From: a virus
Reading direction: 5' to 3' (one strand)
UHGV virus genome: UHGV-0178594
DNA: 64,000 nt
A program made the position numbers and the translations under genes. The notes beneath the pieces are model-generated. The model had not been told where the DNA came from. It searched no databases and was given only the letters and a program-made list of their open reading frames with translations. Below, in pieces: positions 9,974 through 51,494 of the stretch. Numbering within the stretch: the first letter of the stretch is position 1; each line of letters opens with the position of its first letter.

Positions 9974-10785
9974 ATTGGCAGCCTCCTTTGACTAAGTTAA
10001 GGAGCTACCGCGTGAGGTTCCAATCTCAATGGCGGTAGCACTGACTGGGTTGGAACTACCGGCGTCAAAGGGAACCGGCCTGCCTTTCGGCAGCCCAGCC
10101 AGCACTACCATTGATCTCTGAGCTAAACGCTAAGTATGGCTGTGCGATGGCATGACACAAAAAAAGACGCGTTCGGCGTCTGTGTCGCCTTTGACATTAT
10201 CCGGGGTTCCAATCCCGGCACCCGTTTTTCTAAGGTGCCGTAGAAATATACCCCACGATAATGCCAGGGCGCAACTGTGTGTTTTCTTATGCTTTTCTTT
10301 TCTTCTTTTGGGCTTGCTTGCAGGCGTAGGCCATTGCTTTAGCTTTCACTTCATCCAGCTTTCCGGTGATCACTTCTTTTCCGAGAGTGACAAACCAGTC
10401 ATAGCAACCGCCAGTGATGTTCTGGATTTGAAAGTTGAGGTAGCGAACGGTCATTTTGACACCCCCAGCGCGAGTAAAGAATGCAGATTATCGCGTGAGT
10501 GGCGGACAACGAGTGATGGGAAAAGACAGTAGCTGTTCATAGTGTAGTGACTCCTTGCTTTCGGAGCCGCCATCGACTGTTCCACGGTCTGGTGGCGGCG
10601 CAATAAAGGTTGGAACACCGTGAGTCAACGGGGGCTTTTCAGCCACCTATATTGCACCGCCATTGGTATGGCGGCGGCAATCATACGAAAAACCAAACGG
10701 TTTGTCTCAAAAAGTTGACCGGTGTACCAATCGGTTGTGAATGTACAACGGCGAATCTCACAATTCAACTTAAAATGTTAGAAAA

Positions 10786-36950: not shown

Positions 36951-37026
36951 TGGTGGCCCCTACCGGACTTGAACCGGTGACCGTGCGATTATGAGTCGCC
37001 CGCTCTAACCACTGAGCTAAAGGGCC
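36951..37026 (-). tRNA. tRNA, anticodon CAU (tRNA-Ile2/ileX-like or Met)
   Basis: 76 nt, GGCCCTTTAGCTCAGTGGTTAGAGC...CTCATAA...GGTTCAAGTCC...CCA; close to E. coli tRNA-Ile(LAU). Confidence 0.8.
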
Positions 37027-37455
37027 AGATTACTGTTAATTACGCTTACGCTTTTTGCCAGAACCGCGTAAGGCTTTTGCCGCTTGCTCTACCCCGTATG
37101 CAACCACCAGCAGAAACAATAATGTCCACTCCGGGTTTTTATCGGCAAACGCCCAAAAATCCATCACTTGCAGCCACCTTTTAAGACAAAACGCCATTGC
37201 TGTTAGGTTGCGGTGCCGGGTGCCTCCCGGTGACGTTAACCAGTTAACAATTAACGCCGGATCACTTATGGATTCTCGTTACGCCAGTAAAAAGACCACC
37301 TTTACTGTTTTAACTGTTCCGCGTGCGCTTAGCCGCATTCACCGCAATGGTAAGAGCATTTGGCTGACTGGGCGGCGATGACGCCTGTACGCATTTGGTG
37401 ATCCGGTTCTGCTTCCGGCATTCGCTTAATTAGCCAAATACTCTTAACGTTGCGC

Positions 37456-37542
37456 TGGCGGAGAGTAATGGAATCGAACCATCATCGCTTGCGCAATGGG
37501 ACGGTTTTCAAGACCGCTTGAGCACCATGCTCCCTACTCTCC
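37456..37542 (-). tRNA. type II tRNA, anticodon UGA (Ser candidate), atypical D-arm
   Basis: 87 nt; acceptor GGAGAGT/ACTCTCC, loop CTTGAAA, long variable arm, T-loop TTCGATT, encoded CCA. Confidence 0.5.
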
Positions 37543-37647
37543 AGTGATTGTGATGGTCGGTGCTGAACTCCGACACAGGGTTGTAGCAAGCCCCGCAAAG
37601 CGCGCACTACTGTAGTTGCGGCACATCAGCCTGTGCATTCATCACAA

Positions 37648-37725
37648 CGGTAAGGGTACTTCGTAGGGATTCGAACCCTCTGCCAAGCTCGGCGATCTCC
37701 GACGTCGCAAAATACCCTTACCTGT
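37648..37725 (-). other. tRNA-like fragment / degenerate tRNA
   Basis: Contains GGGTTCGAATCCC T-arm inside an 8-bp closing helix but no canonical D or anticodon arm. Confidence 0.3.
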
Positions 37726-37730
37726 TGTGT

Positions 37731-37806
37731 TGGTGCCGGTTAACGGACTCGAACCGCTGACATCCTGCTTACAAGGCAGGCGCTCTACCAACTGAGCTAA
37801 ACCGGC
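37731..37806 (-). tRNA. tRNA-Thr (anticodon UGU)
   Basis: GCCGGTTTAGCTCAGTTGGTAGAGC...CTTGTAA...GGTTCGAGTCC...AACCGGCACCA. Confidence 0.8.
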
Positions 37807-37810
37807 AATT

Positions 37811-37897
37811 TGGTGGGGAGTGATGGAGTCGAACCATCCGAGTCGCAATGACAGTAGATTTACAGTCTACCCCGCTACCCCTACGGACTAACTCCCC
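37811..37897 (-). tRNA. tRNA-Tyr (anticodon GUA), type II
   Basis: 87 nt; anticodon loop CTGTAAA, long variable arm, T-loop TTCGACT, CCA end. Confidence 0.75.
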
Positions 37898-37902
37898 TAA
37901 AT

Positions 37903-37979
37903 TGGCGATGGTGGGTGGATTCGAACCACCGACCGACAGCTTAGAAGGCTGCTGCTCTATCCTACTGAGCTACACCATC
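37903..37979 (-). tRNA. tRNA-Arg (anticodon UCU)
   Basis: GATGGTGTAGCTCAGTAGGATAGAGC...CTTCTAA...GGTTCGAATCC...CACCATCGCCA. Confidence 0.75.
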
Positions 37980-38440
37980 ACTTGCCGGGTACGTCTCCGG
38001 CGAGGGCTTCCACCTCCGTATGCTTTTCGGCGCACCGCGCCCTGGCTGCAATTCGGTAACAGGGGATGCATAACCCTGGCTTCCAGCGTGATTAGCGCCT
38101 TCAGCATGACGGGATATACCCGTTACAAGACATTATCCCAGAAAGCCATTAACCAATGGCTGTTACGCGGGAGGGACGTAACAGGTAAGGGCGCTGACCA
38201 GAAAGACCTGACCCTTCTCATTCATCTGGTTAATCACACCAGCGCCCTTGCCTGTTATGCCTCCCCGTTCCCTAATACACAGACGGGGACACTCTGCGGT
38301 CGATTTTTTGACGGGGGACGACTCATACCCCGTGGCGTCAGGCTTCTTAGGCCGCTACCATCATCAGATCATCGTTTGCATTTACTTTAATGGTCGGGTT
38401 CTAAACCGCCGCAAAGTCGCTAACCATGACGAAAACACTG

Positions 38441-38464
38441 AAAAAACACCCACCCGAAGGTGGG
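38441..38464 (-). terminator. rho-independent terminator (minus-strand reading)
   Basis: cccacc-cgaa-ggtggg hairpin with A6 on plus side (U6 after hairpin in minus transcript). Confidence 0.55.
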
Positions 38465-39290
38465 CAAATATCCCACTCGCGGTATTGCCACTTAGGCGTA
38501 TGGTCAACCTGGCAACTCGGTGTCCTCAACGGGGAAGGAATAACCCCGCCATACTTACCGCCGCGCCTGTCGCGGTTATCGCTACGTATCAACATAAAAG
38601 CCGACTGCCTGAGCAAGATTCACTTTCAAAGGCCCGCAGAAAGGAATCCATAGTCGGCTTTTATCTTGAAGCGGCTCTCTCTCCGCCCGTCACCGTCCTA
38701 TCCCGGTTGTCGCGTTTGCCACGCCAGCCGTAACGAGGTTTAAAGTCTTTTCACGTTTTCATCACTCGACTGCCGTCTATGGCTGTTCGTTGCAGCGGGG
38801 GTGCCTCCCCCTGGGAATATCCCCGGCCTTACCCCATTCTTTCAAGACACAATGCAAGGCCACATCCGCATAGGTGCATTACCGCAACGTTAAGGAGACT
38901 CAGAGTCAGCAAAATAAGAGGAAAACCCAACTCTGCGCCTCCTTAACGTTGAGGATGTGCACTGATGATGACCCGATGCAGCCTGGCCCACTTAACATAC
39001 TCACTGCCAGATCATCATCAATGAACACCATAAAAAGACCTTCCGTGGCTCAAGTCACTGTCGTTTACTCCGTAAAATGCTCTCGCTGAAACCACTTTAC
39101 GCACTAAACCTGCCGGGCATGTATTTGCACGGTGCCGGAGCTTTCCCTTACCTTAAAATTTACTTTCTAACACTTAAAATTGTTTGATGCTGGTGGGGAA
39201 AGACAATGAAGTGACTATCAAACCCGCAAGCGACATGGGAAGCTCCCCACCAGCACGAAAAATTCTATGTTAAGTTAACTACATAATCAA

Positions 39291-39323
39291 TATGTTAGAA
39301 AAACAATTTTAATTTTCTAACAC
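39291..39323. promoter_or_regulatory. palindromic operator candidate (GTTAGAA-N14-TTCTAAC)
   Basis: ATGTTAGAAAAACAATTTTAATTTTCTAACACA, 4 bp from stop of 39325 ORF. Confidence 0.5.
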
Positions 39324-39324
39324 A

Positions 39325-40533
39325 TTATTTCCCGTAAAGATTTTCAACTCCACCGTTCTTCTTATCCCACTCGTTCGCCCATACCCGGCAAGCATCAATT
39401 ATTTCCTGACGGCGATCGCCCTGCATGAACGGAATGCTTTCATGAAAGCTGCTTGGAATGCAGGCCACACTGAACACTGTATCAAACTCAGTCTGCTTGA
39501 TTGCCTCCAACGTCTCTGGACGCATTTTCAATTCGTCGATCGGTGCATCCTTAGAGTCCATAATCCGGCGATGCAAGCGTGGAAAATCCGTTTCAAGGTA
39601 CGCCATAATTTTATCTGCCAGACATTCGTCTATGTCGGTATTCCAGTCAGTTTCGAAGCCAGGAATTCGGTAGTAAAGCGGCGTTCCCCATACTGACGGG
39701 ATCACATCCATCGTCAGCAGGCGGCTGGTTCTGATTTGCTGATGGTAATTTGCCGTCAGCAACGCTTCGCCACGTTGCCCAGTCTCCGCGACCAGACCAT
39801 GCGGAAACTCATGGATATAGGCAATAGCTTCTCTTCCGTCATACATTAGCGGGAATGTCTCTGGCCTTTGCCCCATGCCACAGGCGCGATTCAGATCATG
39901 ACCAAGCTCTGAGCACTCTCGTTTCAATGTTTCAATAATGCTCTGCGCCGCTGCTAACTTTTTACGCAGTGTGACGAGTTCGCCTTGATACTCAACGCAT
40001 TGCTGATTTAGCTTGGTTAAACGCTCTTTTAGTTCCCGACGCTCTCTTTTCAGCGTGCGGTTATCTTTCTCCGCAACATCCAGTCGTTTTGTCAGGCTTG
40101 GCGGATAGTCTTTTTTGTAACGACTCAAATCGACTTCAGCAGATTTGCGCAGTGTATTTGCCTGCTCAAGACGCGCCTCCAGATTGCCGATCTCATTACG
40201 CATATTCGCGGCAAATTGATTAACTGCATCCCCCAGGCTTTCAACTGTCGCTGATACACCAGTGACTTGAGAAAAACGGATCAAGCCATCATTAACGGCT
40301 TGCTGATATTCCTCAAACTGATCCACCAGCTTATTGTAATCAACTGCCCCATCATCAAGGAGCTGGTTGATTTCCGCCACCAGGTTATCTGTAGTGGCAA
40401 TGACGCTCTCATGCAGTCGCTTTGACAGGTCATCGCCCGGATTTCGTTTCTGTATAAGCGCGATTTGTGTCCGCAGCGTTTCAATTGCGGTTGAGATGAT
40501 CTCCAGGCTTGATGATTCTACTTGCTGACTCAT
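39325..40533 (-). CDS. coiled-coil protein with C-terminal globular domain
   Basis: 402 aa; N-terminal ~200 aa heptad-rich; flanked by GTTAGAA palindromic sites and terminator 40606-40631. Confidence 0.5.
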   Translation of the reverse strand: MSQQVESSSLEIISTAIETLRTQIALIQKRNPGDDLSKRLHESVIATTDNLVAEINQLLDDGAVDYNKLVDQFEEYQQAVNDGLIRFSQVTGVSATVESLGDAVNQFAANMRNEIGNLEARLEQANTLRKSAEVDLSRYKKDYPPSLTKRLDVAEKDNRTLKRERRELKERLTKLNQQCVEYQGELVTLRKKLAAAQSIIETLKRECSELGHDLNRACGMGQRPETFPLMYDGREAIAYIHEFPHGLVAETGQRGEALLTANYHQQIRTSRLLTMDVIPSVWGTPLYYRIPGFETDWNTDIDECLADKIMAYLETDFPRLHRRIMDSKDAPIDELKMRPETLEAIKQTEFDTVFSVACIPSSFHESIPFMQGDRRQEIIDACRVWANEWDKKNGGVENLYGK

Positions 40534-51167: not shown

Positions 51168-51494
51168 AGTTACGGCCTCGTAAGTTGATAAACAACCTGC
51201 GACCCGCTGTCAAACAGGTGGCAGGACGTGACAGGGTTGACAGACTGGCACTTACGAAACCAGCAGGCCGAAGCCTCCCCATCACGCCCCACCATAATTC
51301 GGGCGTAACGTGGTTTTACGGACACAAAAATACCGCAATATCGGAAATGTGCGGTTGTCCGCGTAAGTATTCAGGCTGTCAAACCTGGTCGCAGAATTTG
51401 CTACGACGGCATGAATATAAGCCTGAACATTAGAAAGATCAACAGAATTTTTATCAAATGCTGTTTTTTAGTGACAATGTAAATCATACATTCT

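Follow-up and report, generated by a model that had tools for sequence, protein, structure and literature searches.

A transfer-messenger RNA (tmRNA), which serves ribosome rescue in bacteria, by definition joins a tRNA-like half to an mRNA-like half. Other small structured RNAs of phages come from tRNA transcripts: the species 1 and 2 RNAs of T4 (rnaC and rnaD) are presumably freed from such transcripts by tRNA-processing enzymes, and they are not known to carry a tag frame. When RefSeq plasmids and 543 bacterial viruses were surveyed in 2014, ssrA was located in mycobacteriophages only (PMC4131195). In mycobacteriophage DS6A the tmRNA has the tRNA-like domain only and is said to inhibit tmRNA (PMC4131195), full tmRNAs occur in Bxz1-type mycobacteriophages and in Bacillus phage G (PMC4131195; PMC11915505), and a tmRNA database of 2025 holds 79 phage sequences, truncated forms having been rejected (PMC11915505). 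Here we report that the virus genome UHGV-0178594, analyzed as a stretch of 64,000 nucleotides (the window), carries at 38255-38441 on the minus strand a conserved structured RNA of ∼185 nt that has the architecture of the tag-encoding half of a tmRNA, that is, an mRNA-like domain without the tRNA-like half. The system closest to this tmRNA-like RNA is tmRNA, especially the coding piece of the two-piece (permuted) tmRNAs of alpha- and betaproteobacteria and cyanobacteria (RF00023, RF04321, and RF01850). The element lies in a 1.2-kb GC-rich region beside a tRNA cluster (37980-39160), which had been singled out from the letters alone as a candidate structured RNA (hereafter the original prediction), and its delimitation draws on alignments, frame invariants, and covariation.

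In a sensitive BLAST search, 38254-38441 alone matched unrelated phages, among them Erwinia phiEa2809, E. coli ECBP1, and Cronobacter CS01, in DNA that is unannotated. The element is the most conserved part of the leader in which it lies, with 96-98% identity to phages P1 and D6 over 38255-38441 as compared with 87-88% for the surrounding leader. Its 5' domain (GUUUUCG...GCGACUUUGCGG...UUUAGAAC...GACCA) is followed on the same strand by an alanine resume codon, GCA (38379-38377), a ten-codon tag open reading frame (ORF), ANDDLMMVAA (38379-38350), and a stop codon (38349-38347), so that the frame reads ...UAAAU GCA AAC GAU GAU CUG AUG AUG GUA GCG GCC UAA. The E. coli ssrA tag, by comparison, is ANDENYALAA; the first unrelated phages that were aligned encode peptides akin to that of the window, ANDNEFKVAA, ANDDLMLMAA, and ANDDVVLMAA. 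A pattern scan of IMG/VR returned about 90 members with at least 17 tag variants.

The frame was analyzed, as was covariation, in an alignment (A3) of 32 diverse family sequences whose tags include ANDDLMMVAA, ANDDVVLMAA, ANDEQFLAVA, and ANEEMYLAVA. In 32 of the 32 the frame opens with a GCA or GCT resume codon and comprises ten codons, after which comes TAA or TAG. Upstream there is an in-frame stop codon (UAG at −24 nt in 31 of the 32 and UGA at −18 in L172), and no relative has an ATG, GTG, or TTG between this stop and the resume codon. The bases U(−5)A(−4) ahead of the resume codon, positions that set the frame in E. coli tmRNA, are invariant in the alignment. Codons 1, 2, 3, 9, and 10 vary by synonymous changes (GCA/GCT, AAC/AAT, GAT/GAC, and GCC/GCG/GCT), and the tags follow the pattern A-N-D/E-x-x-hydrophobic-L/M-x-A/V-A of an ssrA-type degron, which is conserved while the nucleotides of codons 4-8 diverge freely. 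From the exact frame, the synonymous changes, and the degron pattern taken together we infer that selection acts on the encoded peptide and hence that the frame is decoded; the lack of a start codon in turn suggests a resume-type mechanism, and with it the host trans-translation system.

The second line of evidence is structural. A UGG/CCA hairpin holds the stop codon between its arms and is followed on the minus strand by an H-type pseudoknot, with stem S1 formed by 38333-38328 and 38316-38311 and stem S2 by 38322-38319 and 38302-38299, and by a hairpin, H3 (38289-38283 paired with 38268-38262). There is thus one pseudoknot and one hairpin after the tag, as against the usual three pseudoknots of tmRNA. 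Because an all-against-all analysis of column covariation was swamped by clade structure, we counted helix by helix and used partner columns slid out of register as controls. Over the stop-codon hairpin and the pseudoknot stems, 94% of the cells are paired and 12 of 18 pairs have changed on both sides: the hairpin is 100% paired, with changes on both sides in 4 of 4 pairs, and the pseudoknot stems are 97.5% (S1) and 92% (S2) paired, both sides having changed in 7 of their pairs. None of 500 shuffles reached the observed value, and sliding the partner columns lowered the paired fraction to 32-55%. In H3, a conserved loop, UGUGAUUAAUAA (UGUAUUAG in the P1 type), is carried on at least 10 different stems. 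A comparative alignment for covariation, which the original prediction had proposed as a check, has thus brought out a covarying stop-codon hairpin, pseudoknot, and third hairpin within 38255-38441.

An Rfam scan had been proposed in the same place; it returned no family at the gathering threshold besides tRNAs, but it did return a sub-threshold tmRNA match over the tag region. The models tmRNA_permuted, beta_tmRNA, and tmRNA all gave sub-threshold matches, over the tag region only, in every member tested. In a 371-nt search the tmRNA_permuted model scored 24.1 bits (threshold 47; E = 0.0039), with the resume-to-stop segment aligned and 119 model positions skipped, and relatives score 20-26 bits against the Rfam tmRNA models. 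Conversely, in permuted tmRNAs called by ARAGORN, the match of a hidden Markov model (HMM) of the family starts ∼25 nt ahead of the resume codon and extends into the pseudoknot; the E-values, as low as 8e-8, are inflated by the preselection of this test set for a shared 16-mer. The 5' UUUUCG of the element also matches the 5' tRNA-domain or adjoining segment, as delimited by ARAGORN, of genuine permuted tmRNAs in viral contigs. As a separate observation, dozens of IMG/VR viral contigs (L007-L126) hold permuted, two-piece tmRNA genes called by ARAGORN that have the same UAAAUGCAAACGA resume context, and a tag found among them, ANDERFLMAA (L031 and L103), is nearly that of a member of the family without a tRNA-like domain, ANEERFLMAA (L220). 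These near-equal tags hint at the origin of the tmRNA-like family.

The element is widespread. With a P1-type query 230 phage records were matched, and with a variant from a lambdoid prophage (L359, tag ANDDLMLMAA) 472. The carriers include P1-like phages, Ackermannviridae (Det7, Ag3, and SFP10), N4-like Gamaleyavirus, Drexlerviridae, HK620, and Vibrio, Aeromonas, and Erwinia phages, with T1-like and P22-like phages among them, and their hosts include Escherichia, Salmonella, Klebsiella, Erwinia, Cronobacter, Serratia, and Aeromonas. Among 5,426 complete E. coli genomes, 660 (12%) have the element, in 582 plasmid and 140 chromosomal places and with no RNA annotation. It always sits in the leaders or tRNA arrays of lytic or late operons, and its neighbors are swapped freely between relatives. 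In unrelated phages (phiEa2809, ECBP1, CS01, and others) it lies on the strand of the tRNA genes, mostly upstream of them, and in lambdoid prophages it follows closely on a tR'-like terminator, in the interval that separates the Q antiterminator gene from the holin gene. The variant cited above (L359 2642-3744, E. coli chromosome NZ_CP058748.1) has a T-arm-like GGCAGGTTCGATTCCTGAC after it. Among the matches listed, the annotation under the element is either absent or "hypothetical protein," except in P1, where a "dicF-like region" overlaps its 5' end. A search of bacterial genome contigs with a 15-base family pattern gave no member among the matches listed, most of which came from unrelated taxa, and the six enterobacterial or gammaproteobacterial candidates that were inspected are non-members. 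The element is not in Rfam 15, and we found no account of it in the full-text literature or in the tmRNA database papers and their supplements, a body of text that does not include the P1 genome paper.

Judged by its DNA matches, the window is a P1/D6-type phage-plasmid: the closest match of 37000-39400 is Escherichia phage D6 (89% identity over 81%), further matches are P1, P7, and other P1-like phages, and E. coli plasmids match window DNA up to 99.9%. The region lies between a PmgS-like gene (402 aa, minus strand, ending at 39325) and five minus-strand tRNA genes called by ARAGORN: tRNA-Arg (37903-37979), tRNA-Tyr (37811-37897), tRNA-Thr (37731-37806), tRNA-Ser (37456-37542), and tRNA-Met (36951-37026). 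In the homologous DNA of P1, the annotation runs from the promoter P1ban and the bivalent C1 operator Obanab through the "dicF-like region," tRNA-Asn and tRNA-Thr, tciABC, and tRNA-Ile to ban. The window has instead the leader, tRNA-Arg/Tyr/Thr, RNA modules, tRNA-Ser, a small ORF, tRNA-Met, and homologues of D6 orf6 and orf5, past which come lpa and pacAB; the ban gene itself is not found downstream of the leader and tRNAs in the window. The layout of the ban-operon leader is nonetheless present, with an operator-like pair beside a promoter-like site of the sigma-70 type, an untranslated leader, and tRNA genes on the same strand, and 37980-38585 aligns with the P1 leader between Pban and tRNA-Asn. 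By sequence homology, then, 37980-39160 is the untranslated 5' leader of a leftward operon, the counterpart of the promoter-proximal part of the P1 ban operon, and it is this homology by which we judge transcription of the region to be leftward. Two further features of the window may be mentioned here. The tRNA-Ser(UGA) gene scores 44.6 bits against the Rfam tRNA-Sec model (threshold 47), above its score against the general tRNA model, an oddity on which the D6 record also remarks. There are also two separate C4 antisense RNA loci, at 10028-10238 and 51214-51420 (minus strand), one adjoining isrK and the other having a c4 a1/b1 target element; by this evidence two immI-type regions seem to be present in the window.

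A consensus scan (9/12) identified TTGATT-17 nt-TAGAAT at 39262-39290 on the minus strand, immediately after the pmgS-like gene and in a position equal to that of Pban/Op72 in P1. We regard this promoter-like site as a candidate promoter of the leftward operon. An inverted pair of operator-like repeats (39292-39323, inverted repeat I7) abuts its −35 hexamer, and a third copy lies at 39152-39173. The underlying motif, TTTCTAACAC (extended consensus AAATTnAnTTTTCTAACAY), occurs 20 times in the window with at most one mismatch, against 3.9 expected, and none of 100 shuffles reached 20; the motif site at 39161 on which the original prediction had drawn as a boundary is accordingly genuine, the motif being over-represented about five-fold. 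Copies often form inverted pairs 22 nt apart, for example 11406/11428, 16325/16347, and 39292/39314. The motif is probably the binding site of the C1-type repressor of this phage, and the inverted pair at 39292-39323 has its analogue in P1 in the bivalent C1 operator Obanab. The extended consensus has the layout of the P1 C1 operator on the opposite strand; the P1 sequence, ATTGCTCTAATAAATTT, differs from the window motif. A leader so placed would be made only while the immunity repressor is inactive.

The leader is an array of reusable RNA modules. From 5' to 3' on the minus strand, these are a hairpin at 39183-39260, a stretch specific to the D6 lineage with the hairpin I1, the hairpin I4 with a U tract, a homologue of the sequence preceding DicF, a terminator-like hairpin, the tmRNA-like RNA, the hairpin I2, and a spacer of ∼190 nt. 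Minus-strand folds of 38590-38960 and 37980-38254 have z-scores of −5.3 and −2.5, respectively, relative to shuffles. The extended inverted repeats that had been noticed at the outset are real: the gccgact/agtcggc pair given as an example is I4, and I2, I1, and I6 are further long pairs. The 5'-proximal hairpin (GCUGGUGGGGA / UCCCCACCAGC) is built on I6, which pairs 39183-39199 with 39244-39260 (17-nt arms, 88% complementary); in D6 its stem is kept and its loop varies. I1 (38869-38967; 38869-38906 paired with 38930-38967) belongs to a module family of the form CAAC-G(G/T)TAAG...CTT..C-GTTG, and module arms at other places in the window, as well as in other phages, align with it. In D6 it shows the compensatory change AACGUU/AACGUU to AACAUU/AAUGUU, and its loop has diverged, with a 2-nt indel. 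Together with the sequence that follows it, I1 makes up a recurrent pair of modules, with hairpin arms CACAAC(A)GGTAAGRGCATT / TGCTCTTWCCGTTGTGG and then a GGTGAATGCG... block. In this instance the block (38680-38868) starts with GCGGUAAUGCACC..., is nearly identical to D6, and is found only in D6-type plasmids; it shares with the modules of the STnc100 type (RF02076) only their opening motif, and gives no Rfam match. The hairpin I4 (AAAGCCGACU...AGUCGGCUUUU, 38589-38669) pairs 38589-38606 with 38652-38669 (18-nt arms, 94% complementary), is present in the minimum-free-energy fold, and, with UAUGUU after it, is terminator-like.

Next on the minus strand comes a homologue (38479-38575) of the ∼100 nt directly upstream of DicF in lambdoid phages, with 90-93% identity to lambdoid and Stx phages; the P1 "dicF-like region" maps to 38431-38532 of the window. 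In the lambdoid locus L006, the matching segment (1501-1598) adjoins Rfam DicF (1426-1477, 73 bits) between ydfC and dicB. The DicF model (RF00039), which does detect DicF in L006, found no match in the window at the gathering threshold or at E up to 10, and a genuine DicF in the window was rejected, since only its upstream flank is held in common. The position of DicF in lambdoid phages is taken here by a terminator-like hairpin, GCCCACC-UUCG-GGUGGGU plus U7 (38437-38466; 8-bp stem at 38466-38447 with 5 GC pairs, TTCG loop, and T7), 5 nt upstream of the tmRNA-like RNA. It should be noted that the terminator scan found two terminator-like sites where chance alone would give 3.0; we credit this one because it is conserved in P1 and D6, not because of the scan count. 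The original prediction had placed a clean terminator at 38441-38464, implying that a leftward transcript ends there. The hairpin and its T7 tract are borne out, at 38466-38437, but the site is inside an operon leader and is not the simple end of a leftward transcript.

Directly 3' of the tmRNA-like RNA lies I2 (38170-38266; 38170-38196 paired with 38240-38266, 27-nt arms, 81% complementary), which is seen in the fold and belongs to the module family ACAGG(U/C)AAGGGC...GCCCUUACCUGU. Arm motifs of this type flank the tmRNA-like element in most relatives, and I2 is probably a processing or stability element. The remainder up to tRNA-Arg (37980-38169) is a spacer with several short hairpins that is common to P1-type phages only, with ∼87% identity to P1, P7, and D6. 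Long hairpins in which the arms (CACAACAGGTAAGRGCATT ... TGCTCTTWCCGTTGTGG) are conserved and the interior is freely variable were observed at 38170-38266, 37642-37730, ∼37340-37450, and 38869-38967 and at many loci from L042 to L232; that such hairpins punctuate arrays of tRNAs and tmRNA-like RNA in many phages suggests that they are processing sites. STnc100-like modules (GGTGAATGCG...CAGCACC...) were likewise observed at 37209-37346, where the STnc100 match is sub-threshold (40.8 bits against a 47-bit threshold), and at 37543-37640, both on the minus strand. STnc100-like sequence is also found downstream of DicF in lambdoid phages and downstream of long hairpins in other phages.

The original prediction had described the region as GC-rich and devoid of a convincing ORF on either strand, and had offered a large non-coding RNA (ncRNA), an intron-like element, or decayed genes as its content. 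The excess of GC is real but modest, 38001-39000 (53.5%) being the highest of all 64 one-kb bins of the window, the others ranging from 38.5% to 52.4%. The absence of a convincing ORF was also confirmed: there are only mechanical ORFs of 33-180 aa, the two longest (180 and 161 aa) lie on the plus strand, antisense to the tRNAs and RNA elements, none of the nine region ORFs tested has a Pfam match at E < 0.07, and the alignment with D6, at 84% mean column identity over the whole leader, contains indels of 1, 1, 4, 1, 2, 6, 3, and 2 nt across the region. Because Pfam matches are lacking and the indels break the frames, the region is non-coding. The best case for a small protein is a hydrophobic 33-aa ORF (38829-38930, minus strand) inside hairpin I1, with a strong Shine-Dalgarno-like AAGGAGG and a TTG start in a layout that resembles a type I toxin; this reading was rejected, since D6 has a 2-nt indel and no TTG, which breaks the ORF, and the hairpin holding AAGGAGG keeps its pairing in D6 by a compensatory change. 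The indels, of which several are not multiples of three, and the lack of Pfam matches likewise leave no sign of decayed protein genes. For the window, Rfam at the gathering threshold and at E up to 10 returned only tRNAs, sub-threshold STnc100, the weak tmRNA match, and microRNA-type matches, which merely reflect hairpins; a group I or II intron family was not among them, nor was a family that would make the region a single large ncRNA, and what the region holds is a chain of separate modules of differing evolutionary reach. We thus regard decayed genes, an intron-like element, or small proteins such as the 33-aa ORF as a highly improbable account of the region. What survives of the structured-RNA candidate is the abundance of RNA structure in the region, for part of which there is support from covariation; the forms proposed for it, a single ncRNA, an intron, or decayed genes, do not.

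As to function, the tmRNA-like RNA most likely acts on host trans-translation, to judge from its frame and architecture, and we see an even chance that the best explanation as a whole, a repressor-controlled modular leader carrying a tmRNA-like RNA that acts on this system, is correct. The RNA would be cut from a lytic-phase transcript at the flanking hairpins or tRNAs, and once excised it would act on the host trans-translation/ssrA-degron pathway. We favor a role in which it offers an alternative tag template to ribosomes that host Ala-tmRNA-SmpB has rescued, with titration of factors that bind the tmRNA coding region as a close second. In its specific form, the proposal is that a free-standing coding module reprograms host ribosome rescue in trans, such that rescued ribosomes resume on the phage template, via host Ala-tmRNA-SmpB or by some other route, and add a degron chosen by the phage; this we put forward as a possibility, and tentatively.

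Several observations count against action of this kind. Trans-translation as it is understood needs a template tethered to a charged tRNA-like domain, and no such domain accompanies the element: neither the window nor any family locus gave a tmRNA call by ARAGORN, and at the gathering threshold Rfam had none for the window and 17 family loci. In the complete 48-kb genome of Cronobacter phage CS01, where the element has a promoter of its own and precedes the terminase operon, there are 0 ARAGORN genes (tRNA or tmRNA) and no candidate in a scan for a T-arm plus CCA. The same scan of the window gave the five tRNAs only, and the search for a hidden tRNA-like domain, by ARAGORN, Rfam, a T-loop regular expression, the T-arm plus CCA scan, and inspection of the flanks in many relatives, gave none. 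Base pairing with E. coli ssrA fared no better, the duplex energies being equal to those of shuffled controls both for the whole RNA and for the 5' domain against the 3' helix-2 region. In P1-type phages the strong terminator-like hairpin just upstream of the element may limit the transcription that reaches it. Finally, the 5' domain (∼60 nt) is almost invariant, so that covariation cannot show its fold or an equivalent of PK1; in a candidate helix within it (columns 11-15 paired with 49-53), one pair has changed on both sides, and another three depart by unpaired cells only. Apart from these points, the window contains a tRNA-like module that ARAGORN did not call (37642-37730, minus strand), with a 10-bp stem, GGUAAGGGUA/UACCCUUACC, a hairpin, GCGACGUCGGAGAUCGCC, and a T-arm-like AGGGUUCGAAUCCCU; a similar module adjoins the tmRNA-like RNA in viral contigs L061, L146, L171, L194, and L187. 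It was rejected as a partner of the element, as the third pair of its acceptor-like stem is U-U or U-A where G-U (G3-U70) would be required and CS01 lacks the module.

The failure to find a tRNA-like domain anywhere, a complete carrier genome included, is what would be expected of a decoy, an RNA that is never decoded and that mimics the coding region and pseudoknots of tmRNA so as to soak up a host factor such as ribosomal protein S1, the secondary sites of SmpB, RNase R, or a tmRNA-targeting defense nuclease. The maintenance by covariation of the stop-codon hairpin, pseudoknot, and H3 fits such a role, as does the mirror-image case of DS6A, whose tRNA-like-domain-only tmRNA is the one said to be inhibitory (PMC4131195). 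Yet a decoy would need neither an exact ten-codon frame nor the third-position synonymous changes (GCA to GCT, AAC to AAT, and GCC/GCG/GCT) and the conserved degron pattern, and we consider it doubtful. The same features tell against a role purely in cis, in which the leader would be an attenuator, processing, or stability platform for the downstream tRNAs and genes and the tag frame the relic of a captured tmRNA piece. A relic would lose its frame, its stop codon, and its degron pattern, but these are kept across phage families that share nothing else nearby, and the element is the most conserved part of the leader while its neighbors are swapped freely; its constant placement in leaders, where a terminator-like hairpin or a promoter directly precedes it and tRNAs or late genes follow, and the flanking long hairpins typical of processing sites speak for a cis role, which on balance seems unlikely.

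A frame without a start codon, a near-invariant 60-nt 5' domain that ends at the Ala codon, and the lack of a partner tRNA-like domain could also be accommodated by initiator-independent translation from that codon, with the 5' domain filling the P site in the manner of an internal ribosome entry site or as a mimic of a tRNA-like domain, and with a free ssrA-like decapeptide that competes for SspB/ClpXP as the product. There is no bacterial precedent for a native element of this kind, the covariation counts give the 5' domain no established fold, and a free decapeptide would be short-lived and would be needed at high concentrations; this mode of translation thus strikes us as quite improbable.

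If the tmRNA-like RNA does serve as a tag template in trans, it would represent a mode of trans-translation in which no charged tRNA-like domain is tethered to the template and a new form of viral control over host protein quality control, and it would give concrete access to the means by which phages in lytic growth manipulate ribosome rescue and ssrA-dependent proteolysis. An RNA that is a tag template only would in effect be a natural experiment on the mRNA-like half of tmRNA alone. Its spread over hundreds of phages and ∼12% of complete E. coli genomes makes the element hard to dismiss, and phage P1, as a standard laboratory tool, lends itself to direct tests of it. At a minimum, it defines an RNA gene family that annotation pipelines miss or overprint with "hypothetical protein."

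The comparison with known systems can be drawn as follows. With the dicF locus of lambdoid prophages the leader has in common the flank preceding DicF, at 90-93% identity, a terminator-type hairpin in the place of DicF, and STnc100-like sequence, which lies downstream of lambdoid DicF and recurs in the window; unlike in that locus, the two flanks are separated in the window by the tmRNA-like RNA, a long hairpin, and tRNAs. The T4 species 1 and 2 RNAs are similar in being stable RNAs co-transcribed with phage tRNAs. The likeness to tmRNA goes much further: an Ala resume codon in the context UAAAU|GCA AAC GA, with U(−5)A(−4) and no start codon, a short tag that opens with A-N-D and closes with hydrophobic-Ala-Ala, and a stop codon in a helix-5-like hairpin followed by an H-type pseudoknot. 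Unlike tmRNA, the element has no acceptor stem, T-arm, CCA, or separate acceptor piece, is only ∼185 nt long, and is embedded in phage operon leaders. Like the tmRNA derivative of DS6A it is phage-borne, and DS6A shows that a phage can carry half of the molecule; but whereas DS6A keeps the tRNA-like half without a tag frame, the element in the window is the opposite half.

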